DNA from: Escherichia coli
Lineage (GTDB): Bacteria; Pseudomonadota; Gammaproteobacteria; Enterobacterales; Enterobacteriaceae
DNA: 64,000 nt
Assembly: GCF_003334335.1 (NCBI RefSeq)
Contig: NZ_QOWQ01000010.1
Reading direction: 5' to 3' (one strand)
Positions 3,118 to 57,242 of this stretch are shown here, in pieces (within the stretch, counting starts at the first letter, position 1; every line of letters begins with the position of its first letter). A model generated the notes under the pieces. It searched no databases. It was given only the letters and a program-made list of their open reading frames with translations, and was not told the origin of the DNA. The position numbers and the translations under genes were made by a program.

Positions 3118-3410
3118 TGAGCGAGTCACTGAGCTGGATGCAGACGGGTGACACGCTGGCGTTATCCGGAGAGCTGGATCAGGACGTTTTGCTACCGCTT
3201 TGGGAAATGCGTGAGGAAGCGGTGAAGGGGATTACCTGCATCGATCTTAGCCGTGTCTCCCGCGTGGATACGGGGGGACTGGCACTGCTGCTCCATCTTA
3301 TCGATCTGGCGAAAAAGCAGGGCAACAATGTGACGCTTCAGGGGGTAAACGACAAAGTGTATACCCTGGCGAAATTGTATAATTTGCCTGCTGATGTTCT
3401 GCCTCGTTAA
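3117..3410 (+). CDS. mlaB: STAS-domain protein MlaB
   Basis: 97-aa ORF (MSESLSWMQTGD...) whose ATG overlaps the mlaC stop (TAATG); ORF-track 3021..3410 trimmed. Confidence 0.9.
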
Positions 3411-3569
3411 ATTTTTTCAGGCCGGATATGGCGTTAACCGCCTGTCCGGCAAACCTGCCTGCAAGTCGAGCCTTGTCTGATTTATCAGCGAGGCTTTTTG
3501 CTTATTTATGCCAGCGCAACTTTGCTCTAAGATGTTTCGCTGGTTTATTAACTGATGATTGAAGATCCC

Positions 3570-3824
3570 ATGGAAAATAATGAAATTCAGAGCGTGTTGA
3601 TGAACGCTCTCTCCCTCCAGGAAGTCCACGTTTCCGGCGATGGCAGCCACTTTCAGGTTATTGCCGTGGGTGAGTTGTTTGACGGCATGAGTCGGGTTAA
3701 AAAACAGCAGACGGTCTATGGTCCGCTGATGGAATATATTGCGGATAACCGCATTCATGCTGTGTCGATCAAAGCGTATACCCCTGCGGAGTGGGCGCGC
3801 GATCGCAAACTGAACGGCTTTTGA
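3570..3824 (+). CDS. ibaG: BolA-family acid-stress protein IbaG (YrbA)
   Basis: ORF-track 3555..3824; 84-aa product from ATG at 3570 ([10 protein letters not shown]...) matches remembered IbaG; ATG at 3555 is an alternative start. Confidence 0.85.
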
Positions 3825-3878
3825 GCTATGGGCGATTCGCCGGTAGCGGATATGAATTGTTAACTGAGAACAAACTAA

Positions 3879-5138
<1,260 letters not shown>

Positions 5139-13437: not shown

Positions 13438-15372
13438 ATGGCGAAAAACCTAATACTCTGGCTGGTCATTGCCGTTGTGCTGATGTCAGTATTCCAGAGC
13501 TTTGGGCCCAGCGAGTCTAATGGCCGTAAGGTGGATTACTCTACCTTCCTACAAGAGGTCAATAACGACCAGGTTCGTGAAGCGCGTATCAACGGACGTG
13601 AAATCAACGTTACCAAGAAAGATAGTAACCGTTATACCACTTACATTCCGGTTCAGGATCCGAAATTACTGGATAACCTGTTGACCAAGAACGTCAAGGT
13701 TGTCGGTGAACCGCCTGAAGAACCAAGCCTGCTGGCTTCTATCTTCATCTCCTGGTTCCCGATGCTGTTGCTGATTGGTGTCTGGATCTTCTTCATGCGT
13801 CAAATGCAGGGCGGCGGTGGCAAAGGTGCCATGTCGTTTGGTAAGAGCAAAGCGCGCATGCTGACGGAAGATCAGATCAAAACGACCTTTGCTGACGTTG
13901 CGGGCTGCGACGAAGCAAAAGAAGAAGTTGCTGAACTGGTTGAGTATCTGCGCGAGCCGAGCCGCTTCCAGAAACTCGGCGGTAAGATCCCGAAAGGCGT
14001 CTTGATGGTCGGTCCTCCGGGTACCGGTAAAACGCTGCTGGCGAAAGCGATTGCAGGCGAAGCGAAAGTTCCGTTCTTTACTATCTCCGGTTCTGACTTC
14101 GTAGAAATGTTCGTCGGTGTGGGTGCATCCCGTGTTCGTGACATGTTCGAACAGGCGAAGAAAGCGGCACCGTGCATCATCTTTATCGATGAAATCGACG
14201 CCGTAGGCCGCCAGCGTGGCGCTGGTCTGGGCGGTGGTCACGATGAACGTGAACAGACTCTGAACCAGATGCTGGTTGAGATGGATGGCTTCGAAGGTAA
14301 CGAAGGTATCATCGTTATCGCCGCGACTAACCGTCCGGACGTTCTCGACCCGGCCCTGCTGCGTCCTGGCCGTTTCGACCGTCAGGTTGTGGTCGGCTTG
14401 CCAGATGTTCGCGGTCGTGAGCAGATCCTGAAAGTTCACATGCGTCGCGTACCATTGGCACCCGATATCGACGCGGCAATCATTGCCCGTGGTACTCCTG
14501 GTTTCTCCGGTGCTGACCTGGCGAACCTGGTGAACGAAGCGGCACTGTTCGCTGCTCGTGGCAACAAACGCGTTGTGTCGATGGTTGAGTTCGAGAAAGC
14601 GAAAGACAAAATCATGATGGGTGCGGAACGTCGCTCCATGGTGATGACGGAAGCGCAGAAAGAATCGACGGCTTACCACGAAGCGGGTCATGCGATTATC
14701 GGTCGCCTGGTGCCGGAACACGATCCGGTGCACAAAGTGACGATTATCCCACGCGGTCGTGCGCTGGGTGTGACTTTCTTCTTGCCTGAGGGCGACGCAA
14801 TCAGCGCCAGCCGTCAGAAACTGGAAAGCCAGATTTCTACGCTGTACGGTGGTCGTCTGGCAGAAGAGATCATCTACGGGCCGGAACATGTATCTACCGG
14901 TGCGTCCAACGATATTAAAGTTGCGACCAACCTGGCACGTAACATGGTGACTCAGTGGGGCTTCTCTGAGAAATTGGGTCCACTGCTGTACGCGGAAGAA
15001 GAAGGTGAAGTGTTCCTCGGCCGTAGCGTAGCGAAAGCGAAACATATGTCCGATGAAACTGCACGTATCATCGACCAGGAAGTGAAAGCACTGATTGAGC
15101 GTAACTATAATCGTGCGCGTCAGCTTCTGACCGACAATATGGATATTCTGCATGCGATGAAAGATGCTCTCATGAAATATGAGACTATCGACGCACCGCA
15201 GATTGATGACCTGATGGCACGTCGCGATGTACGTCCGCCAGCGGGCTGGGAAGAACCAGGCGCTTCTAACAATTCTGGCGACAATGGTAGTCCAAAGGCT
15301 CCTCGTCCGGTTGATGAACCGCGTACGCCGAACCCGGGTAACACCATGTCAGAGCAGTTAGGCGACAAGTAA
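13438..15372 (+). CDS. ftsH: ATP-dependent zinc metalloprotease FtsH (HflB)
   Basis: ORF-track 13429..15372 trimmed to ATG 13438 ([10 protein letters not shown]...); AAA Walker A GPPGTGKT and zinc site HEAGH present. Confidence 0.96.
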
Positions 15373-15403
15373 GTTCCCGCATCAGATGACTGTATTTGTA
15401 CCG

Positions 15404-15434
15404 AAAACCCCGGGGCGTGCTCCGGGGTTTTTTC
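15404..15434 (+). terminator. Rho-independent terminator after ftsH
   Basis: AAAACCCCGGGGCGTGCTCCGGGGTTTTTT. Confidence 0.75.
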
Positions 15435-15461
15435 TTATCAATTCATACCAGGGATAACATC

Positions 15462-16310
15462 ATGAAACTCTTTGCCCAGGGTACTTCACTGGACCTTAGC
15501 CATCCTCACGTAATGGGGATCCTCAACGTCACGCCTGATTCCTTTTCGGATGGTGGCACGCATAACTCGCTGATAGATGCGGTGAAACATGCGAATCTGA
15601 TGATCAACGCTGGCGCGACGATCATTGACGTTGGTGGCGAGTCCACGCGCCCAGGGGCGGCGGAAGTTAGCGTTGAAGAAGAGTTGCAACGTGTTATTCC
15701 TGTGGTTGAGGCAATTGCTCAACGCTTCGAAGTCTGGATCTCAGTCGATACATCCAAACCAGAAGTCATCCGTGAGTCAGCGAAAGTTGGCGCTCACATT
15801 ATTAATGATATCCGCTCCCTTTCCGAACCTGGCGCTCTGGAGGCGGCTGCAGAAACCGGTTTACCGGTTTGTCTGATGCATATGCAGGGAAATCCAAAAA
15901 CCATGCAGGAAGCTCCGAAGTATGACGATGTCTTTGCAGAAGTGAATCGCTACTTTATTGAGCAAATAGCACGTTGCGAGCAGGCGGGTATCGCAAAAGA
16001 GAAATTGTTGCTCGACCCCGGATTCGGTTTCGGTAAAAATCTCTCCCATAACTATTCATTACTGGCGCGCCTGGCTGAATTTCACCATTTCAACCTGCCG
16101 CTGTTGGTGGGTATGTCACGAAAATCGATGATTGGGCAGCTGCTGAACGTGGGGCCGTCCGAGCGCCTGAGCGGTAGTCTGGCCTGTGCGGTCATTGCCG
16201 CAATGCAAGGCGCGCACATCATTCGTGTTCATGACGTCAAAGAAACCGTAGAAGCGATGCGGGTGGTGGAAGCCACTCTGTCTGCAAAGGAAAACAAACG
16301 CTATGAGTAA
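15462..16310 (+). CDS. folP: Dihydropteroate synthase FolP
   Basis: ORF-track 15396..16310 trimmed to ATG 15462 ([32 protein letters not shown]), 282 aa. Confidence 0.95.
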
Positions 16311-17640
16311 TCGTAAATATTTCGGTACCGATGGGATTCGTGGTCGTGTAGGGGATGCGCCGATCACACCTGATTTTGTGCTTAAGCTGGGTTGGGCCGC
16401 GGGTAAAGTGCTGGCGCGCCACGGCTCCCGTAAGATTATTATTGGTAAAGACACGCGTATTTCTGGCTATATGCTGGAGTCAGCACTGGAAGCGGGTCTG
16501 GCGGCAGCGGGCCTTTCCGCACTCTTCACTGGCCCGATGCCAACACCGGCCGTGGCTTATCTGACGCGTACCTTCCGCGCAGAGGCCGGAATTGTGATAT
16601 CTGCATCGCATAACCCGTTCTACGATAATGGCATTAAATTCTTCTCTATCGACGGCACCAAACTGCCGGATGCGGTAGAAGAGGCCATCGAAGCGGAAAT
16701 GGAAAAGGAGATCAGCTGCGTTGATTCGGCAGAACTGGGTAAAGCCAGCCGTATCGTTGATGCCGCGGGTCGCTATATCGAGTTTTGCAAAGCCACGTTC
16801 CCGAACGAACTTAGCCTCAGTGAACTGAAGATTGTGGTGGATTGTGCAAACGGTGCGACTTATCACATCGCGCCGAACGTGCTGCGCGAACTGGGGGCGA
16901 ACGTTATCGCTATCGGTTGTGAGCCAAACGGTGTAAACATCAATGCCGAAGTGGGGGCTACCGACGTTCGCGCGCTCCAGGCTCGTGTGCTGGCTGAAAA
17001 AGCGGATCTCGGTATTGCCTTCGACGGCGATGGCGATCGCGTGATTATGGTTGACCATGAAGGCAATAAAGTCGATGGCGATCAGATCATGTATATCATC
17101 GCGCGTGAAGGTCTTCGTCAGGGCCAGCTGCGTGGTGGCGCTGTGGGTACATTGATGAGCAACATGGGGCTTGAACTGGCGCTGAAACAGTTAGGAATTC
17201 CATTTGCGCGCGCGAAAGTGGGTGACCGCTACGTACTGGAAAAAATGCAGGAGAAAGGCTGGCGTATCGGTGCAGAGAATTCCGGTCATGTGATCCTGCT
17301 GGATAAAACTACTACCGGTGACGGCATCGTTGCTGGCTTGCAGGTGCTGGCGGCGATGGCACGTAACCATATGAGCCTGCACGACCTTTGCAGCGGCATG
17401 AAAATGTTCCCGCAGATTCTGGTTAACGTACGTTACACCGCAGGTAGCGGCGATCCACTTGAGCATGAGTCAGTTAAAGCCGTGACCGCAGAGGTTGAAG
17501 CTGCGCTGGGCAACCGTGGACGCGTGTTGCTGCGTAAATCCGGCACCGAACCGTTAATTCGCGTGATGGTGGAAGGCGAAGACGAAGCGCAGGTGACTGA
17601 ATTTGCACACCGCATCGCCGATGCAGTAAAAGCCGTTTAA
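16303..17640 (+). CDS. glmM: Phosphoglucosamine mutase GlmM
   Basis: 445-aa ORF with active-site ISASHNP motif; start overlaps folP stop by 8 nt. Confidence 0.96.
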
Positions 17641-17657
17641 AGCGTTAGATAACTGGC

Positions 17658-17686
17658 TAAAAAGGCGGCGATTGTCGCCTTTTTTC
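17658..17686 (+). terminator. Rho-independent terminator after glmM
   Basis: AAAAAGGCGGCGATTGTCGCCTTTTTT. Confidence 0.75.
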
Positions 17687-17867
17687 TCAGCGAACACATC
17701 GGTTTTGCTGTTTTTTTCCGCAGTTGATACAATGCGATAAAATTGCCCTTGCGAAGGTCATTCGCTTTGGTTAGTATTCACACCCGCTTCAGTGGGAAAG
17801 ATTAAAAACTCCCGCTTTATTGGTTGAAGCATTGGTACGCGGCAACTCCGCAAGGAACAGGTTGATT

Positions 17868-18200
17868 ATGTATGAAGCTCTTTTAGTAGTTTTCCTTATT
17901 GTGGCAATTGGCCTTGTTGGTCTGATCATGCTGCAGCAAGGTAAAGGCGCTGATATGGGAGCCTCCTTCGGAGCAGGCGCTTCCGCTACGCTGTTTGGTT
18001 CAAGTGGTTCTGGTAACTTCATGACCCGCATGACGGCGCTGCTGGCAACGTTATTCTTCATCATCAGTCTGGTGCTGGGTAACATCAATAGCAACAAAAC
18101 CAATAAAGGTAGCGAATGGGAAAATCTGAGTGCACCGGCGAAAACCGAACAAACTCAGCCAGCTGCTCCGGCTAAGCCGACCAGCGATATCCCGAACTAA
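17868..18200 (+). CDS. secG: Protein-export membrane protein SecG
   Basis: ORF-track 17820..18200 (TTG start) trimmed to ATG 17868 (MYEALLVVFLIVAIGLVGLIMLQQGKGADMG), 110 aa. Confidence 0.93.
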   Translation: MYEALLVVFLIVAIGLVGLIMLQQGKGADMGASFGAGASATLFGSSGSGNFMTRMTALLATLFFIISLVLGNINSNKTNKGSEWENLSAPAKTEQTQPAAPAKPTSDIPN

Positions 18201-18214
18201 AAAGTAGTATCCGT

Positions 18215-18301
18215 GCCGAGGTGGTGGAATTGGTAGACACGCTACCTTGAGGTGGTAGTGCCCAATAGGGCTTACGGGTTCAAGTCCCGTCCTCGGTACC
18301 A
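18215..18301 (+). tRNA. leuU: tRNA-Leu
   Basis: 87-nt sequence GCCGAGGTGGTGGAATTGGTAGACACGC...GGGTTCAAGTCCCGTCCTCGGTACCA with long variable arm and encoded CCA, 14 nt after secG stop. Confidence 0.93.
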
Positions 18302-18309
18302 AATTCCAG

Positions 18310-18340
18310 AAAAGAGACGCTGAAAAGCGTCTTTTTTCGT
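18310..18340 (+). terminator. Rho-independent terminator after secG-leuU
   Basis: AGAGACGCTGAAAAGCGTCTTTTTTCG immediately after tRNA-Leu. Confidence 0.75.
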
Positions 18341-18759
18341 TTTGGTCCTGGTCTGAGGAATGGTTGTCAGGTATCTGTATCTCGTCCAGTTGCTTTACTC
18401 GTAGCTGGTACCTTGAAACGATGGTGCCGGTACGCCTTAGTTATAAATTTTTCCCTTCTACTGACATAATTGGCACTTTATTGTGTCAACTCCAGTTCCG
18501 GTACGAATACGGATATGTTTACTTCTCGATAAACCATCCTGCTCCTGTCAGTATAACGACTGATGGCTACGTTCTGCGTAATGTTTAGAGACGCATTGAT
18601 AATGTTATTTAATTACTGAGAACGCAATGGCCGCATCATTTAAAAAGAAAAAACTAACAGTGTTTCGTTCTGATATGGATCAGAGTTGAAAAACATGTCT
18701 GATATAAAATTAAACATTGTTGATAATTGTTTATATTGGTTGTGAACTTGGATTTCTGG

Positions 18760-20385
18760 ATGACAGTATTCAACAAATTTGCTAGAACTTTTAAATCTCA
18801 TTGGTTGTTGTATCTTTGTGTTATTGTTTTTGGTATTACGAACTTAGTCGCTTCTTCCGGAGCGCATATGGTTCAGCGCTTGCTGTTCTTCGTTCTGACC
18901 ATCCTGGTTGTAAAACGTATATCATCCCTTCCGCTTCGCCTGCTTGTTGCCGCACCATTTGTGTTACTGACTGCGGCAGACATGAGTATTAGCCTCTATT
19001 CATGGTGTACCTTTGGTACAACTTTCAATGATGGATTTGCGATTAGTGTGCTCCAGAGTGATCCGGATGAAGTTGTCAAAATGCTGGGGATGTATATCCC
19101 TTATCTATGTGCCTTTGCTTTTTTATCCCTTCTTTTTTTGGCAGTAATAATAAAATATGATGTTTCCTTGCCGACAAAAAAAGTGACAGGAATATTATTG
19201 CTGATTGTCATTTCGGGCAGTTTATTTTCCGCTTGTCAATTTGCTTATAAAGATGCAAAAAATAAAAAAGCGTTCAGTCCATATATACTAGCGTCGCGAT
19301 TTGCTACCTATACGCCGTTTTTCAATCTCAACTATTTTGCTTTAGCAGCGAAAGAGCATCAAAGATTACTCTCAATTGCAAACACGGTGCCGTATTTTCA
19401 ATTATCAGTCAGGGATACAGGTATTGATACCTACGTGTTGATTGTGGGGGAGTCTGTACGTGTCGACAATATGTCTTTGTATGGATATACACGCTCTACG
19501 ACACCGCAAGTTGAAGCACAAAGAAAACAGATCAAACTGTTTAATCAAGCAATAAGCGGCGCACCTTACACTGCGCTGTCGGTTCCCCTTTCTTTAACTG
19601 CTGATTCTGTTTTGAGTCATGACATTCATAATTACCCCGACAACATTATTAATATGGCTAATCAAGCAGGATTTCAGACTTTCTGGCTAAGCTCGCAATC
19701 CGCTTTTCGGCAGAATGGTACAGCAGTTACCAGTATCGCCATGCGCGCCATGGAAACAGTTTATGTCAGAGGATTTGATGAATTGTTGTTGCCGCATTTA
19801 TCGCAAGCATTACAGCAAAATACGCAGCAAAAGAAACTGATTGTTCTTCATTTAAATGGAAGCCATGAACCGGCTTGTAGCGCCTATCCGCAATCCAGCG
19901 CCGTGTTTCAACCGCAGGACGATCAGGATGCCTGCTATGACAACTCCATTCATTACACAGATAGTTTGCTAGGTCAGGTTTTTGAATTATTAAAAGATCG
20001 CCGCGCCTCGGTCATGTATTTTGCCGACCACGGCCTGGAACGTGACCCTACGAAGAAGAACGTCTATTTTCATGGAGGCAGGGAGGCTAGCCAGCAGGCA
20101 TATCATGTCCCGATGTTTATCTGGTATAGCCCCGTTCTTGGGGATGGCGTGGATCGCACAACGGAAAACAACATCTTTTCGACAGCTTACAATAATTACC
20201 TTATTAATGCGTGGATGGGGGTAACAAAGCCGGAACAGCCGCAAACGCTTGAGGAAGTGATTGCACACTATAAAGGAGACTCACGGGTTGTGGATGCAAA
20301 CCATGATGTTTTCGATTATGTGATGCTCAGAAAGGAGTTTACAGAGGATAAGCAAGGTAACCCCACCCCTGAAGGGCAGGGTTGA
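18760..20385 (+). CDS. yhbX: Sulfatase-family membrane protein YhbX (EptA-like putative phosphoethanolamine transferase)
   Basis: ORF-track 18727..20385 trimmed to ATG 18760 (MTVFNKFARTFKSHWLL...), 541 aa; N-terminal TM segments plus C-terminal sulfatase-like domain; AT-rich. Confidence 0.85.
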   Translation: MTVFNKFARTFKSHWLLYLCVIVFGITNLVASSGAHMVQRLLFFVLTILVVKRISSLPLRLLVAAPFVLLTAADMSISLYSWCTFGTTFNDGFAISVLQSDPDEVVKMLGMYIPYLCAFAFLSLLFLAVIIKYDVSLPTKKVTGILLLIVISGSLFSACQFAYKDAKNKKAFSPYILASRFATYTPFFNLNYFALAAKEHQRLLSIANTVPYFQLSVRDTGIDTYVLIVGESVRVDNMSLYGYTRSTTPQVEAQRKQIKLFNQAISGAPYTALSVPLSLTADSVLSHDIHNYPDNIINMANQAGFQTFWLSSQSAFRQNGTAVTSIAMRAMETVYVRGFDELLLPHLSQALQQNTQQKKLIVLHLNGSHEPACSAYPQSSAVFQPQDDQDACYDNSIHYTDSLLGQVFELLKDRRASVMYFADHGLERDPTKKNVYFHGGREASQQAYHVPMFIWYSPVLGDGVDRTTENNIFSTAYNNYLINAWMGVTKPEQPQTLEEVIAHYKGDSRVVDANHDVFDYVMLRKEFTEDKQGNPTPEGQG

Positions 20386-20392
20386 TGTCGAA

Positions 20393-21751
<1,359 letters not shown>

Positions 21752-21786
21752 TTAATTAACTGATGATGAGCCTGGATTTCCGCTCT

Positions 21787-21825
21787 CACTGAATTTTTAT
21801 GCAAAATAAATGAGTTTTCATTTAA
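21787..21825 (-). promoter_or_regulatory. Candidate tandem ARG boxes (ArgR operator) in argG promoter
   Basis: Two adjacent 18-bp elements CACTGAATTTTTATGCAAAA and ATAAATGAGTTTTCATTTAA resembling TnTGAATwwwwATTCAnw, 50-90 bp upstream of the argG start codon. Confidence 0.45.
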
Positions 21826-21961
21826 TCATCTTTTATCGGAGACAGGAAGAGTTTAGTGTGTTTTTTGTAAAATAATGCGCTTAAGGGAGAGCAGGAGAAG
21901 GCAAAAGTATTCAACAAATGAAAGTGAACTGGATATTCATTCACATGATTAGCAATAAACG

Positions 21962-21991
21962 TTGACAAAATGTGGCGTGGATCACTATAAT
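21962..21991 (+). promoter_or_regulatory. Near-consensus sigma70 promoter upstream of metY (distal promoter candidate)
   Basis: TTGACA (21962-21967), 18-bp spacer, TATAAT (21986-21991). Confidence 0.5.
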
Positions 21992-22038
21992 GCCTGCAGA
22001 TTTTACGTCCCGTCTCGGTACACCAAATCCCAGCAGTA

Positions 22039-22068
22039 TTTGCATTTTTTACCCAAAACGAGTAGAAT
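22039..22068 (+). promoter_or_regulatory. Candidate proximal promoter of metY
   Basis: TTGCAT (22039-22044), 18-bp spacer, TAGAAT (22063-22068); tRNA starts at 22084. Confidence 0.5.
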
Positions 22069-22083
22069 TTGCCACGTTTCAGG

Positions 22084-22160
<77 letters not shown>

Positions 22161-22281
22161 CTTTCCCTTAGAGTCCTTTTTCAAATATACTGTGAAGACT
22201 TCGGCCTTCGTAGTGGGATTTGAAAAAATCCTTCTGGAAAGTGCTCCAGACCGCAGTTGCGGTTATAGGGTTCAGTTATAT

Positions 22282-22308
22282 AAAGCCCCGATTTATCGGG
22301 GTTTTTTG
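22282..22308 (+). terminator. Terminator/attenuator between metY and rimP
   Basis: AAAGCCCCGATTTATCGGGGTTTTTTG between the tRNA and the rimP start. Confidence 0.7.
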
Positions 22309-22366
22309 TTATCTGACTACAGAATAACTGGGCTTTAGGCCCTTTTTTTATGTCTTGGGGGTGGGC

Positions 22367-51587: not shown

Positions 51588-52283
51588 TTATTGCAGTGGA
51601 CGAGTTTCTGTCCCGGAACTGCCGCCATAATCATTGATCGCAGCCCATTTCACGTTCTTTCCGCCAGATGCAGGAAGTGGTAACTGTTTATGTTCTCCGG
51701 GCGCGATATATTCAATTTTGCTTGTGAGATCGGTTTTATCGACTGCCAGTCCGGCAAATACGACGTAATATTCAGTTGGGTTATATATATTGAGTGAATG
51801 GTCACTACGTTTAAATTCCAGTGATTTCCACGCATCGTTTACCCGTCCCTTCAGGTGTGCGGGGCGATAAAACATTTTGATCCGTGTTTTAAATACCAGC
51901 GTCAACTCGTTAGCATTAACATCATCTGATTTTTTCTTTGCTGGAATGGCACGAACATTAATGTAGAACAGCGACTCTTTATTTTCAGGCAGGTTATCAG
52001 CTGTTTTAATAATTCGCAGTGATGAGTCATCGCCAGCCTCAAGACGAAATAGCGGTGGGGTTATAATAAATGGGGCACGGCTTTTACCATCTATATTATC
52101 TACCCATGATTGCAGTAAATAAGGCGTTTCTGCGCCTTTGTTTGCGACAGGTAACGCAGCCTCTTTGCGGCTGGCATCATAGATCACTCGCGTTCGCTGT
52201 AAAACGATTCCTCCTGCAAGCGCCTGGCCAATACAGAAGCTACACAACAAGGTTAATATCACCGCGAATGTTCGTTTTGACAT
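51588..52283 (-). CDS. yraI: Periplasmic pilus chaperone YraI
   Basis: 231-aa ORF with signal peptide, PapD-like chaperone fold. Confidence 0.9.
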
Positions 52284-52362
52284 AGTTATTTTTCAACCTG
52301 ATACAACGAGAAAGAGGAAGGAAAAGGGCGTTATCTGACAGGTCAGATAACGCCCTAACGTA

Positions 52363-52947
52363 TTAACGGTAATCCAGCGTTACGTTAACGATAGCGTCTG
52401 CTTCCCCTGGGGTGATTTCTGATGGAACTACGGTTGATACGTAGTAAGCGATGAGGTCAACATTGACAATACCATTGGATTCCGCCGGGATCTGATAAAC
52501 CGTGTTATCATTGCCCATAGCATTCAGTGGCATAATGTTTCCGCTTTCCGCATCGTCAATACGGATACCCACACCTGTTGCCGCTATGCCAGCAAAAGAG
52601 CCTACTTTTGCCAGATTAGGGAAGTTAGGGACGGTGCCATTATCTCGCGTTTCCAGCCATAGACGGAAAGACGCTTCAACGTTGCCGTTATCGTGCTCCC
52701 ACCCAGTCATTGGGCAGTTAACTAAAGGAATAGTGAATGGAATTTTTGGGCTACGCTCGCCAATATTACGAAACTGTTCGGCATTATAGTGACCAAGAGC
52801 AACTTCAATTTTCTTATCAGAGTCATTGATTTCACAAGCGGATTTTAAAATCTCGCCATCAAAAACTATTTCACCATCGGTTGCAGCGGCATTACCTGCG
52901 AAAAGCGCAAGTAAGCCCGCAATAGCTGTTTTTGTAACTTTATTCAT
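52363..52947 (-). CDS. yraH: Fimbrial subunit YraH
   Basis: 194-aa ORF with signal peptide MNKVTKTAIAGLLALFAGNAAA; first gene of yraHIJK. Confidence 0.88.
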   Translation of the reverse strand: MNKVTKTAIAGLLALFAGNAAATDGEIVFDGEILKSACEINDSDKKIEVALGHYNAEQFRNIGERSPKIPFTIPLVNCPMTGWEHDNGNVEASFRLWLETRDNGTVPNFPNLAKVGSFAGIAATGVGIRIDDAESGNIMPLNAMGNDNTVYQIPAESNGIVNVDLIAYYVSTVVPSEITPGEADAIVNVTLDYR

Positions 52948-53347
52948 ATATAACCTTATCCTTGTAACAAGTACATAATCATATTTAATGTGAATATATG
53001 TTCAACATCTTTAAAGATTATACAGGCAGAAATATTTCATTGAACATTAAATAGACTGAGCTTTAAGATTATATTTATATGCAAATATTTGATATTTTCA
53101 TTATATTGATATCAATTTTCTATGTATTCAAAAGAGTATAAATGCCTGACTTTGCTGCGCCAGGGGGCGAGTCAGAATACGAGGTGATTTATTAATAGAA
53201 CAAGTTATATGTATATCTAAAATTAAATTGTTGAACATAACTCCTTTTGCTATCGGCGTTATGTTCAACCCAGTCAAATGTTATTTAATATAATGCGTGA
53301 CTGTTACATAAGTTAATTTAAACATTTTGAGCAAATTTTTCATCTGG

Positions 53348-54103
53348 TTAGGTGTTAATTAAACAAATAAAGTTACTGTGCAGCCATAAAAATGAAGCCG
53401 GGATAGCGGTAGAGACTTTAGCCGTGAGAAAACGATCTGTCGCATCCTGCTTTCCTTCGCCAGTCACCAGTAACAAAACTTCGCGGGCATTGAGAATATC
53501 CTTCAGGCCTAAGGTGATCCCACGAGTCACGGGGCGACCCGCGGTTTTTAACATCTCATGTTGCTGTGTTCTGGCATCAAGTTGACTGATATGGCAGGCC
53601 GGTTGCAGGCTTTCTCCCGGTTCGTTCAGCCCAAGATGACCGTTTTTCCCCAATCCGAGAACGCATAAATCCAGACCGCCTTTGCGCGCAATCAGGTTCG
53701 TTACCCGTTCGCACTCTGTCTCATTTATCTCTTCGGAGCGAAAGCTGATGAGCTGGTCTTCACGTAGCCCCAGCGGCTGCACGATATGCTGTTGCAGGAA
53801 AGTTTCGCAGGTGCCTGGCATCGTTAATGGCAGATCCACCCATTCGTCGAGCTTCACGAAGGTGAGCTGGCTGACATCAACCTGCTGCTGGTGGATTTTT
53901 TCTACCAGATAATGATACGTCAGTAATGGCGTGGCTCCGGTCGCCAGGCAAATCACGGCATTCGGTTTGCTACGGATCACGGCCAATAAATATTCGCTGG
54001 CACGTTCACTTAACGCCGTATAGTTTTCAACTTGCTGAAGGGTTTGCACAGGATGAAATTCCTTAAGTAAAGAGGCACCACCAGACGCAGTGCCTCGTTC
54101 CAT
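53348..54103 (-). CDS. agaI: Putative galactosamine-6-phosphate deaminase/isomerase AgaI
   Basis: 251-aa ORF of the NagB/glucosamine-6-P deaminase family; last gene of agaS operon. Confidence 0.9.
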   Translation of the reverse strand: MERGTASGGASLLKEFHPVQTLQQVENYTALSERASEYLLAVIRSKPNAVICLATGATPLLTYHYLVEKIHQQQVDVSQLTFVKLDEWVDLPLTMPGTCETFLQQHIVQPLGLREDQLISFRSEEINETECERVTNLIARKGGLDLCVLGLGKNGHLGLNEPGESLQPACHISQLDARTQQHEMLKTAGRPVTRGITLGLKDILNAREVLLLVTGEGKQDATDRFLTAKVSTAIPASFLWLHSNFICLINT

Positions 54104-54895: not shown

Positions 54896-55688
54896 TGCTG
54901 TAGTCCTCTTCTTCATTTTTACTGGCAACGGGCTGCGGTTGCGCTTGCTGCCGGGATTTCGCATTGAAAAACTCATACACCGCAAAGCCTGCGCCCAGTA
55001 CGGCAACCGGCAACAGGTTGCTGACCTGGATGTAGCAAACAAACAGGAAACCGGCGATCAGGTAAGGGATATATTGCGCTTTGAACATTACGCGCAGCAG
55101 CAAGCCAAAACCAACGGCAGGCAGAATACCGCCAGCCACTTCAAAGCCGTGGGTCAGCCAGGCGGGCATCGCTTTCACCAGCGCCTGCATCGCCCCCTGT
55201 GCCAGGTAAGTACAGAGGAAAGCAATCACCGCATACGCTGAAGCGACGATGAGCATCGTTGTCCAGTTAAGCCGGGAAAACGCTGCCGTATCCGCCTCTT
55301 TCGCGCATTTATCGGCTTTGGTCATAAATAATGAGAAAGCGGAATAGAAGAACAGAATGACGTACTGCATTAACAAACTAAACGGCAGGCCAAGACCAAT
55401 TGCTGTTTTGGCATCAACGCCCGTAGACCATGCAATGACGGTGGTCATCAGACCCGCCATAATCGGGTTGGGCGGCTGAACACCACCTGCAGGGGTTAAT
55501 CCGGCGAAAGCCAACTCTGTCAGACCACCGGTAATTAAGCCAGTCTGAATATCACCGAGAATAGCGCCAGTTAGGGTACAAACGATTATCGGGCGGAATA
55601 AAAATAAGGCTTCCAGCCAAAAATCAATCCCCAGAACAAAAACTAACGCCGCCAGGGATAATCCCTGAAGTAGGGTTATTTCATGCAT
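54885..55688 (-). CDS. agaC: GalNAc/GalN PTS EIIC component AgaC
   Basis: 267-aa membrane ORF, mannose-family IIC. Confidence 0.9.
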   Translation of the reverse strand: MHEITLLQGLSLAALVFVLGIDFWLEALFLFRPIIVCTLTGAILGDIQTGLITGGLTELAFAGLTPAGGVQPPNPIMAGLMTTVIAWSTGVDAKTAIGLGLPFSLLMQYVILFFYSAFSLFMTKADKCAKEADTAAFSRLNWTTMLIVASAYAVIAFLCTYLAQGAMQALVKAMPAWLTHGFEVAGGILPAVGFGLLLRVMFKAQYIPYLIAGFLFVCYIQVSNLLPVAVLGAGFAVYEFFNAKSRQQAQPQPVASKNEEEDYSNGI

Positions 55689-55726
55689 TTTTATTACCTC
55701 AAACCAATATTAAGGCGATTTTAGAT

Positions 55727-56203
55727 TTAGTCAGGGATTTGTTCTTTTTGATCGCCAGGGACGTCCTGAATGAAAACATTCACGCCACGTTGTTTAATAA
55801 AACGTAAGTCCGTGAGATCCTGGTCATCGACATAAACTTTACTGCTGATTTGCTTTTTCCCTTCCGAGAAATGCATATTGCCGACGTTGACATCTTTCAG
55901 GTCAATACCACCTTCTACCAATTTACGTACCGTTTGTGGCGTACGGCAAATCAGGAAGATCTTCTGATGTGGTGCAGCTTTGCCGATGACGTTAATGGTT
56001 TTTTCGATAGTAAAGAAACGAATGCCAAAGCCGTAGGTTTCCGCGGTAATACCCATTAATTTCTGTTGAATATCATCGTTAGCGACAACATCATCCACGA
56101 CTACCAGCAGATTTGCACCGATGGTGGATGTCCAGGTCACGCCAACCTGACCGTGAACCAGACGGTTATCAATACGGGTTAAGAGAATATTTGGACTGGT
56201 CAT
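55727..56203 (-). CDS. agaB: GalNAc/GalN PTS EIIB component AgaB
   Basis: 158-aa ORF MTSPNILLTRIDNRLVHGQVGVTW..., mannose-family IIB with phospho-histidine motif. Confidence 0.92.
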   Translation of the reverse strand: MTSPNILLTRIDNRLVHGQVGVTWTSTIGANLLVVVDDVVANDDIQQKLMGITAETYGFGIRFFTIEKTINVIGKAAPHQKIFLICRTPQTVRKLVEGGIDLKDVNVGNMHFSEGKKQISSKVYVDDQDLTDLRFIKQRGVNVFIQDVPGDQKEQIPD

Positions 56204-56369
56204 TGTGTAATCCTCACCATAAAGTTGAATAATATAATTTTTTTAAATATATTATTGTTGCGATATTGTAGTGATGTATTTATTAAGGTTTAGTTATCTC
56301 CTTTTCCATTAAGGCACTCCCCGATATTAATCGGGAAGTACATTGGGATAAATCATAAAAAACTAATGA

Positions 56370-57242
<873 letters not shown>

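Follow-up and report, generated by a model that had tools for sequence, protein, structure and literature searches.

yhbX and its AT-rich leader between leuU and argG of Escherichia coli: a probable acquired cassette silenced by H-NS

Between the tRNA gene leuU and the 3′ end of argG, E. coli carries yhbX behind a long gene-free gap. The locus raises the question of whether this segment is a native part of the chromosome or arrived as a unit, whether H-NS silences it, and whether the gap holds a regulatory RNA. We examined it within a window of 64,000 nucleotides, in whose positions all coordinates are given unless stated otherwise. A sequence-only reading of the window had placed ~420 bp devoid of a convincing ORF after the leuU terminator; the gap was found to be 421 bp and the coordinates were correct. 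Our analysis points with good confidence to positions 18344-20391 being a single-gene acquired cassette that is silenced by H-NS and encodes a putative phosphoethanolamine (PEtN) transferase. The features of the locus are as follows.

18215..18301, + strand: leuU, tRNA-Leu(GAG), from ARAGORN, Rfam (tRNA, 52.8 bits) and the RefSeq annotation; conserved left neighbour, outside the cassette
18309..18338, + strand: leuU intrinsic terminator, from a terminator scan; reads as a terminator on either strand
18339-18759: gene-free gap between the leuU terminator and yhbX
18344..20391: probable acquired cassette (leader plus yhbX), 2,048 bp, delimited by BLAST breakpoints and outgroup spacers
18344..18759, + strand: non-coding leader, 416 bp, the cassette's own upstream region
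18344-18560: 5′ half of the leader, 44% GC, outside the H-NS-bound intervals
3′ half of the leader: 32% GC, H-NS bound in published data, promoter region
18543-18597 and 18605-18682: two H-NS-bound intervals in the leader (Forrest 2022, Supplementary Data 3)
18561, + strand: candidate yhbX transcription start (TSS_3321812), 199 nt 5′ of the yhbX ATG
18592, − strand: antisense start in the leader, directed toward leuU (TSS_3321781_+)
18760..20385, + strand: yhbX, 541 aa (RefSeq annotation; Pfam PF00884)
18836-19008, 19014-19147 and 19152-19470: three H-NS-bound intervals in the 5′ third of yhbX (Forrest 2022, Supplementary Data 3)
18933 and 19168 (sense), 19393 and 19434 (antisense): four intragenic starts in yhbX induced in Δhns (Forrest 2022, source data)
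20386..20401: right junction, consisting of the 7-bp spacer between the stop codons of the convergent genes yhbX and argG, plus the final two sense codons of argG

The overall GC content of the leader was 38.2%, compared to 51.4% for the window, and fell from 43.7% in the 5′ half to 32.2% in the final 199 bp. By our estimate, this value lies only ~1 sd under those of the other 27 intergenic regions of the window and the leader by itself is therefore no compositional outlier, although its length was unusual among these regions. Joined to the first ~700 bp of yhbX, the leader forms an AT-rich tract that is unusual, as only three stretches ≥1 kb long fall below 43% GC in the 64 kb. The gene itself had been described as AT-richer than its flanking genes, and a comparison of base composition and codon usage with the other window genes set it apart on every measure: GC (43.1%; z = −3.9 vs. 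the 48 other genes), GC3 (42.1%; z = −2.4) and local CAI (0.352) were each the lowest among the 49 genes. The AT-richest part of yhbX was its 5′ portion, which encodes the transmembrane segments, and GC3 rose up to 0.50 in the 3′ third.

The boundaries of the segment were resolved at the base level by a second haplotype of E. coli. In 237 of 5426 complete genomes (4.4%), an unrelated AT-rich cassette of 1168 bp with an HTH gene replaces 18344-20391 exactly, and BLAST against two such loci (L002 and L003) put the breakpoints at 18343 and 20392; leader and yhbX are swapped out together as a single block. The leader was found in 5179 of the same 5426 genomes. The final conserved sequence to the left of the cassette is the leuU terminator, with 18303-18337 being 100% identical to Salmonella. 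In Salmonella diarizonae and two Citrobacter, yhbX is absent and 179-211 bp separate leuU from argG, this spacer of ~200 bp being made up of the leuU terminator, a spacer and the argG terminator. These presence and absence calls cover E. coli, Salmonella and Citrobacter. In a published tree, likewise, no YhbX counterpart is included for Salmonella LT2 or C. rodentium (PMC4013655). At the right-hand end, the C-terminus of ArgG reads AK* in the outgroups; genomes with the alternative haplotype have VK* and those with yhbX have GQ*. The alternative haplotype retains an outgroup-like argG terminator together with the C-terminal Lys. A terminator scan of the yhbX-argG junction returned no terminator-like site, the argG terminator being gone.

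Relatives of YhbX were found elsewhere. The nearest clusters (41-48% identical) came from Buttiauxella, Pectobacterium, Mixta and Microvirgula, each at a different locus, and a 64.5% identical copy resides on an E. coli plasmid (pRHB40-C01_2). The copy of Buttiauxella noackiae showed the same AT-rich insertion signature, a local drop in GC. The Pectobacterium homolog lies within a waa cluster, adjoining a WaaP-family kinase gene, and that of Providencia adjoins hldD-waaF-waaC. Fragmentary "divergent" clusters 68-88% identical to YhbX were discarded as artefacts; one (L028) was ungapped and uniformly 83% identical, ftsH included, and another (L029) was an E. coli contig carrying frameshifts. 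Within E. coli, a pN/pS of 0.11 indicated that yhbX is under purifying selection and is being maintained. Its pS (0.050) was near that of secG, so that the cassette is old within the species and no recent arrival.

These observations bear on three accounts of how the segment came to be where it is. Horizontal acquisition of yhbX, as the sequence-only reading had proposed, is borne out by the exact cassette replacement, the absence of the gene in outgroups and the 41-65% identical relatives at other loci and on a plasmid. Were yhbX instead native and vertically inherited, its AT-richness would stem solely from low expression and from encoding a hydrophobic membrane domain, and Salmonella and Citrobacter would have deleted it. 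The concentration of AT in the transmembrane-encoding 5′ part, the recovery of GC3 in the 3′ third, a synonymous diversity like that of neighbouring genes and the "not horizontally acquired" call in the catalogues used by Forrest et al. (PMC8894471) all fit such a history. However, no window gene has a lower GC3 either, so the bias is more than an amino-acid effect; moreover, the spacer and the argG terminator are intact in all three outgroups, the alternative E. coli haplotype looks like them at its argG end, the relatives occupy unrelated loci and a plasmid, and the B. noackiae copy repeats the local GC drop. We consequently regard vertical descent as improbable. Still less credible to us is that what remains here is a decayed island whose integrase targeted the 3′ end of leuU. 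The segment does lie directly 3′ of a tRNA gene, and the same flank bears different cargo in other genera (a fimbrial operon, sugar-acid genes, an HTH gene), but no integrase or other mobility gene is present, the left boundary falls past the terminator and outside the tRNA, and the right boundary lies within the final codons of argG, which suggests illegitimate or homologous replacement over site-specific integration. Two short, collinear matches to leuU in the leader, considered as a degenerate copy of tRNA-Leu or an att-like repeat, were rejected because 144 of 1000 shuffles scored equally well.

Under acquisition, our preferred reading, the cassette would have entered the Escherichia lineage, a direction of transfer that we infer, and come to lie with the leuU terminator on its left and the 3′ end of argG on its right. 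The insertion would have replaced the ancestral spacer of ~200 bp, argG terminator included, and rewritten the two final argG codons.

The proposal that yhbX is probably silenced by H-NS was borne out by published data. Forrest et al. (PMC8894471) include yhbX in their supplementary list of "H-NS bound" genes and report a log2FC of +1.82 (P = 5.9e-7) in Δhns, i.e., 3.5-fold derepression. Its neighbours showed no such rise, with argG at +0.71 (not significant) and glmM at +0.10, and neither did the paralogues eptA, eptC and opgE, with values of +0.05, +0.02 and −0.19, respectively (PMC8894471). In MG1655, the bound intervals of Supplementary Data 3 lie at 3321776-3321830 and 3321691-3321768 in the leader, and in three pieces within 3320903-3321537 in the 5′ third of yhbX (PMC8894471). 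Coordinates were converted by the relation that window and MG1655 positions add up to 3340373. The five bound intervals and six induced starts all map to 18543-19470, and occupancy covers the leader in its 3′ half and yhbX in its 5′ third. This distribution also fits the suggestion that the leader acts as a silencer. A scan for the 10-bp high-affinity H-NS consensus did not set the leader apart from the remaining window.

Among the induced starts, that at 18561 rose 5.5-fold in Δhns (logFC 2.46; "H-NS bound" list in the source data for the cappable-seq of Fig. 1b, PMC8894471) and is preceded by an extended −10 element (TGtCAGTAT); it is our candidate for the yhbX promoter. Its strand, and that of two further starts, was read from the table allowing for a dropped minus sign. 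The start at 18592 (−) rose 14-fold (logFC 3.85), and the four intragenic starts showed log2 changes of 2.2 to 7.15 (PMC8894471), those at 18933, 19168 and 19393 having 5/6 matches to TATAAT 7-8 nt upstream. Mechanistically, H-NS would coat two AT-rich stretches, one in the 3′ half of the leader and the other in the first third of yhbX, and hold down the yhbX promoter ~199 nt 5′ of the ATG. It would also repress spurious sense and antisense promoters inside the cassette, as in classical xenogeneic silencing. At 3.5-fold, the effect of H-NS on yhbX is moderate, and part of it may be indirect.

The leader had also been suggested to hold a regulatory RNA. A weak RpoH-holoenzyme SELEX peak occurs near 18444, and a cat cassette at ~18440-18450 is in use as a neutral marker. 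A functional element controlling yhbX, whether a structured 5′ UTR or riboswitch, an sRNA or a leader peptide, would gain from the sense start at 18561, which would produce a 5′ UTR of 199 nt, from the SELEX peak and from the low diversity of the leader (π 0.0137, and 0.0087 in the 3′ half, well under the yhbX pS). Nevertheless, an Rfam search of 18344-18759 at E-values up to 5 matched no family, and the predicted fold of the leader was indistinguishable from shuffles (MFE z = −1.3). The ORFs of the leader are short; those of 20 and 74 aa are disrupted by indels in other strains, and a homolog search with the 74-aa ORF gave same-locus E. coli matches only. Furthermore, no similarity was detected between the leader and regions upstream of yhbX homologs, the cat insertion serves as a neutral marker, and a diversity of ~1.4% is too low for covariation analysis. 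The claim of a regulatory RNA was therefore not supported, and we judge such an element unlikely. The leader reads best as the upstream region of an acquired, H-NS-silenced gene.

The loss of the argG terminator has a possible consequence for yhbX, in that argG transcription may pass antisense through the gene. The argG-yhbX pair is among the overlapping convergent pairs in the list of ExcludonFinder, and the overlap of the two transcripts appears to be a by-product of the deletion of the terminator by the insertion. It is conceivable, though doubtful, that arginine-regulated transcription from argG enters the H-NS-coated DNA and either dislodges H-NS (counter-silencing) or represses yhbX in the manner of an excludon, which would couple a putative transferase, probably acting on the lipopolysaccharide (LPS) core, to arginine supply. 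A weaker variant of this idea would place a condition-specific regulatory element in the 5′ half of the leader (18344-18560).

The protein had been described as resembling PEtN transferases. Residues 224-467 of YhbX constitute a sulfatase-fold catalytic domain (Pfam PF00884, E = 3e-56), and E231, T271, H370, D423, H424 and H449 align with E240, T280, H383, D452, H453 and H465, respectively, of NmEptA (5FGN). We take these NmEptA residues to be the Thr nucleophile, the Glu/Asp/His zinc ligands and two further conserved His. The resemblance is confirmed by this domain and by the retention of all six residues; judged from its sequence, YhbX is a member of the PEtN transferase family with intact catalytic residues. 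Hydropathy analysis predicted five hydrophobic segments at the N-terminus (~16-34, 41-59, 59-79, 113-131 and 144-162). The alignments to full-length EptA and CptA models span these segments; Pfam gave no significant N-terminal match, its EptA_B_N model included. YhbX scored 94-157 bits over the generic PEtN-transferase, EptA, EptB and CptA models of NCBIfam, for which curated cut-offs are 404-900. Specifically, the EptA models (cut-offs 561 and 660) gave 122 and 94 bits, EptB (493) gave 105, and the CptA models (404 and 900) gave 142 and 124. As these scores are far under the equivalog cut-offs, orthology to EptA, EptB or CptA was rejected.

By analogy with solved relatives, YhbX would be an intact inner-membrane enzyme with a periplasmic catalytic domain that moves PEtN from phosphatidylethanolamine, via an intermediate on Thr271, to an acceptor in the envelope. 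That the substrate had been called unknown agrees with the literature of 2014, which gives no established function; the YhbX-like Proteus protein PMI3040 was functionally unassigned as of that year. Our best guess for the acceptor is the LPS inner core, from the neighbourhoods of two of eight relatives.

Set against H-NS-mediated xenogeneic silencing and the accompanying repression of spurious promoters within genes, as described previously (Singh 2014, PMC3923964; Forrest 2022, PMC8894471), the locus shares the AT-rich acquired segment and the presence of H-NS over promoter and 5′ coding DNA alike; yhbX mRNA and internal sense and antisense starts are likewise derepressed in Δhns (PMC8894471). 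Unlike the usual H-NS-silenced islands, the yhbX cassette is very small (one gene, 2 kb) and its derepression is moderate; unlike flagged acquired genes, yhbX was missed by the HGT catalogues of PMC8894471, and we propose that it be classed as acquired despite them. The pair it forms with argG recalls excludon-type pairs, being convergent, 7 bp apart and without a terminator. Xenogeneic silencing of yhbX is of an ordinary kind, the main experimental evidence for it can already be found in public supplementary tables, and its weight for general biology is small, an AT-rich acquired gene silenced by H-NS being of a textbook type. Knowing exactly where the cassette begins and ends, that the argG terminator is lost and that an HTH cassette can take its place does allow clean constructs for silencing tests to be defined.

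As to the enzyme, YhbX likewise is predicted to combine a multi-helix N-terminal membrane domain with a periplasmic sulfatase-fold domain, as in EptA (PmrC), MCR-1, EptB, EptC/CptA and OpgE (YbiP), and it has kept the metal-binding and nucleophile residues of NmEptA, six in all. Its identity to characterised PEtN transferases is only ~25-30%. It differs from its four E. coli paralogues in that yhbX is the sole one of the five to be derepressed in Δhns (PMC8894471). As with LPS PEtN transferases, some of its relatives have their genes within or next to LPS-core clusters. Taken with the conserved catalytic residues and the purifying selection, the waa neighbourhoods of these relatives suggest the LPS core as a direction for work on this orphan fifth PEtN transferase.

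The window is E. coli K-12 sequence, and its segment 18150-20450 was 100% identical to O16:H48 genomes and at least partly matched in 5426 of 5426 complete E. coli genomes. RefSeq annotation was carried over to window coordinates, and the features of the locus are as follows.

Features surrounding yhbX
16303-17640, plus strand, glmM (RefSeq)
17868-18200, plus strand, secG (RefSeq)
18215-18301, plus strand, leuU, tRNA-Leu(GAG)
18309-18338, plus strand, leuU terminator
18760-20385, plus strand, yhbX (RefSeq)
20393-21736, minus strand, argG (RefSeq)
22084-22349, plus strand, metY tRNA and rimP leader

The argG-rimP gap held the metY initiator tRNA (22084-22160) and the rimP leader (22249-22349; Rfam RF01770, 102 bits), both ordinary and known.

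The gene-free gap 3′ of the leuU terminator measured 421 bp, with a GC content of 38.2% (43.7% in its 5′ half and 32.2% in its last 199 bp) against a window mean of 51.4%. AT-richness is general in intergenic DNA, and because the leader (non-coding 18344-18759) was estimated to lie only ~1 sd below the 27 intergenic regions elsewhere in the window, its composition alone is unremarkable. What is remarkable is its length, together with an AT-rich tract that runs on for ~700 bp into yhbX. Among the 49 annotated genes, yhbX had the lowest GC content (43.1%, z = -3.9), GC3 (42.1%) and local codon adaptation index (0.352), so the sequence-only reading of a ~420-bp AT-rich, gene-free leader followed by an AT-rich gene held when GC and codon usage were compared with the window genes. 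GC3 climbed along the thirds of yhbX (0.36, 0.40 and 0.50); candidate causes, none of them favored, are a mosaic origin, amelioration that proceeded unevenly, and effects of amino-acid content or strand. Windows of 1 kb below 43% GC occurred at three places only in the 64 kb (18251-20000, 52251-53750 and 55501-56500). The latter two, located beyond the fimbrial genes yraK and yraJ (47941 onward) and reaching 27% GC in a 416-bp window (52937-53352), are likely further H-NS targets.

Silencing of yhbX by H-NS, as had been supposed from composition, is supported by published data. In RNA-seq of a delta-hns strain, yhbX showed a log2 fold change of +1.82 (P = 5.9e-7), a value that denotes derepression since the H-NS targets hdeAB, bglG and leuO were likewise positive; changes were +0.71 for argG (P = 0.087), +0.10 for glmM and -0.62 for leuU, and, for the paralogues, +0.05 (eptA), +0.69 (eptB), +0.02 (eptC) and -0.19 (opgE) (Forrest, 2022; PMC8894471). 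The "H-NS bound" column of the Figure 1b source data includes yhbX, and five bound intervals fall within MG1655 3320903-3321830 (PMC8894471). MG1655 numbering runs as the reverse complement of the window, and window and MG1655 coordinates sum to 3340373, because the published GalR motif at MG1655 3320107-3320122 corresponds to window 20251-20266. The start sites listed below are all in the H-NS-bound list of that study and all increased in delta-hns; the strand of three was inferred, as a trailing minus sign had been lost from the table.

H-NS-bound intervals and start sites (PMC8894471, converted to window coordinates)
18543-18597, bound interval, leader 3′ half
18605-18682, bound interval, leader 3′ half
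18836-19008, bound interval, yhbX 5′ third
19014-19147, bound interval, yhbX 5′ third
19152-19470, bound interval, yhbX 5′ third
18561, start site, sense to yhbX, log2 change 2.46
18592, start site, antisense to yhbX, log2 change 3.85
18933, start site, sense to yhbX, log2 change 2.22
19168, start site, sense to yhbX, log2 change 5.43
19393, start site, antisense to yhbX, log2 change 3.24
19434, start site, antisense to yhbX, log2 change 7.15

Five of six TATAAT positions were matched 7-8 nt upstream of the starts at 18933, 19168 and 19393, which supports the coordinate conversion. Within yhbX, the published intervals were restricted to the AT-rich 5′ part of the gene. An H-NS consensus-motif scan of the window was uninformative.

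The leader had been proposed to hold either a regulatory RNA or a silencer. It gave no Rfam match, even at E up to 5, and its folding energy lay within the shuffle distribution (z = -1.3), which speaks against the RNA; the H-NS intervals in its 3′ half are in keeping with the silencer. Leader ORFs of 20 aa and 74 aa were struck by indels in other strains, and no homologues of the 74-aa ORF were found elsewhere. The 5′ half (18344-18560; 44% GC) is not H-NS bound. In bench work, a cat cassette placed at ~18440-18450 serves as a linked, neutral marker. Most simply, the 3′ half can be read as promoter plus H-NS nucleation DNA. Room for a leader function is left by the 199-nt 5′ UTR implied by the start at 18561, by a nucleotide diversity of 0.0137 across the leader and 0.0087 in its 3′ half, well under synonymous diversity in nine strains, and by a weak RpoH-holoenzyme genomic-SELEX peak between yhbX and leuU (intensity 3.2, with many neighboring entries at 3.0-3.7), whose low-resolution position near 18444 was converted from older MG1655 coordinates.

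In strain 2014C-3011 and a fox isolate, homology to the window ended at 18343 and restarted at 20392, the 2,048 bp between being swapped for an unrelated segment of 1,168 bp and 37% GC (L002, the alternative haplotype, 3195-4362, in place of window 18344-20391). Leader and yhbX are thus one cassette and a natural replacement unit, which the bounds drawn from sequence alone (18341-20385) matched nearly exactly. On its opposite strand, the alternative cassette encodes a protein of 317 aa, recognizable only by an N-terminal HTH_19/XRE-type motif; matches to the protein were confined to its N-terminal ~40 residues, and no convincing PADLOC or NCBIfam match was obtained. Among 5426 complete E. coli genomes, 5179 had the yhbX leader and 237 the alternative cassette. 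A 1.5-kb contig of a "Collinsella sp." MAG (L015, JAIJJM010000762.1) encoded the alternative HTH protein with 100% amino acid identity beside an ArgG end at 98.6%, and is almost certainly E. coli contamination.

A scan for the leuU sequence across species-representative genomes returned 23 loci. The leuU-argG junction lacked yhbX in Salmonella enterica subsp. diarizonae as well as in two Citrobacter, where only 179-211 bp separated leuU from the argG stop codon; this stretch comprised the leuU terminator, a spacer (REP-like in appearance in Salmonella) and a hairpin with a T-run, which we read as a putative argG terminator. The alternative E. coli haplotype keeps a terminator of this type. In the yhbX haplotype, the stop codons of yhbX and argG are 7 bp apart, and a terminator scan found no such hairpin at their junction. 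ArgG ends in ...NKVK* in the alternative haplotype, which is close to the ...AK* of the outgroups, and in ...NKGQ* in the yhbX haplotype. From these junctions we infer that the event that introduced yhbX would have replaced the whole stretch beginning just past the leuU terminator and ending inside the final two argG codons. Further out, for instance in Hafnia and Edwardsiella (L005, L011, L022, L023 and L025 among the loci compared), rimP follows leuU directly, without argG, and the position of argG here is therefore itself derived. Other cargo 3′ of leuU, namely a chaperone-usher fimbrial operon in Intestinirhabdus alba (L020 1396-8000) and a sugar-acid dehydratase with an MFS transporter in one C. 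amalonaticus strain (L012 1-1978), indicates that the site is recurrently variable across Enterobacterales. No integrase gene was present at the locus. Two leuU-like stretches in the leader were rejected, as 144 of 1000 shuffles scored equally well. The argG-yhbX pair is among listed transcriptionally overlapping convergent pairs, which gives a low probability to regulatory coupling of argG transcription with yhbX silencing.

Across nine diverse E. coli strains, synonymous diversity was 0.050 in yhbX, 0.055 in secG, 0.084 in argG and 0.097 in glmM, so the cassette is old within the species. A pN/pS of 0.11 for yhbX versus 0.014-0.028 in its neighbors indicates a constraint that is maintained but relaxed. 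By annotation, yhbX was frameshifted in two of eight sampled RefSeq genomes (L032 and L034), be it real or sequencing error, and an IS4-like ISVsa5 element interrupts it in the laboratory strain ET12567 (NZ_CP045457.1).

Outside the 50% cluster of YhbX itself, none of 1.84 billion cluster representatives, searched exhaustively, exceeded 48% identity to it. The nearest clusters came from Buttiauxella, Pectobacterium, Mixta, Microvirgula and Providencia, each relative at a different locus.

Genomic settings of YhbX relatives
B. noackiae, between menF-elaB-GNAT genes and kdp genes
Mixta, among small hypothetical genes
B. massiliensis, defense or mobile island, EcsC gene after the homolog (L042)
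Pectobacterium, within the waa cluster for the LPS core, immediately following a WaaP-family kinase
Providencia, beside hldD-waaF-waaC
E. coli plasmid pRHB40-C01_2, CP057032.1 (L046) 438-2099, 553-aa phosphoethanolamine transferase, 64.5% identical to YhbX, closest relative found

The compositional signature seen in E. coli recurs at the B. noackiae copy, with 42.6% GC in the gene and 33.8% upstream of it against 50-52% in the flanks. The 62-kb plasmid is typed non-mobilizable; its yhbX-like gene adjoins MFS, EcsC and GGDEF genes, and its upstream DNA showed no similarity to the leader. A YhbX counterpart is missing among the Salmonella LT2 and Citrobacter rodentium proteins of a published transferase tree (PMC4013655). 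The scattered loci, repeated AT-rich signature, plasmid copy and missing counterpart together support the proposal that yhbX was horizontally acquired. This comparative evidence disagrees with a table in PMC8894471 that labels yhbX "not horizontally acquired", per the catalogues its authors used. A Logan assembly (L028, SRR3359616) aligned without a single gap to window 14760-22113, at a uniform 83.45% identity over 7,354 bp, ftsH and glmM included. Its genes are fragmented, and it makes YhbX fragments in protein clusters seem more diverse than they are; its reads look chemically converted or mutagenised, not like those of a divergent species. Some NCBI records in protein clusters P0045 and P0088 give the name "phosphate starvation-inducible protein PsiE" to proteins ~100% identical (rounded) to YhbX, which looks like a propagated annotation error.

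Taken as a whole, the finding is real and its initial interpretation essentially right. Modestly new are the exact cassette boundaries, the HTH cassette that takes this site in other genomes, the changes to argG (terminator lost, last two codons altered), and the plasmid-borne and waa-linked relatives. The yhbX case is commonplace: the phenomenon is known, the genome is well annotated, and the decisive experimental data are already public. The resemblance of YhbX to phosphoethanolamine transferases was upheld: it has a sulfatase-fold domain (PF00884, E = 3e-56), and when it was aligned to Neisseria EptA of known structure (5FGN), Glu231, Thr271, His370, Asp423, His424 and His449, the counterparts of the EptA nucleophile and metal-site residues, proved conserved. 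Five hydrophobic segments lie at the N-terminus of YhbX. The literature consulted states that its function is not known, consistent with the earlier remark on its substrate. As a tentative best guess, nearly as apt to hold as to fail, the acceptor may lie in the LPS core, because two relatives sit in or by waa-cluster genes. YhbX thus shares the fold and catalytic residues of EptA-type transferases and is a member of the superfamily; since its scores fell far short of the curated thresholds for the EptA, EptB and CptA models and it is ~25-30% identical to characterized members, it is the ortholog of no characterized enzyme.
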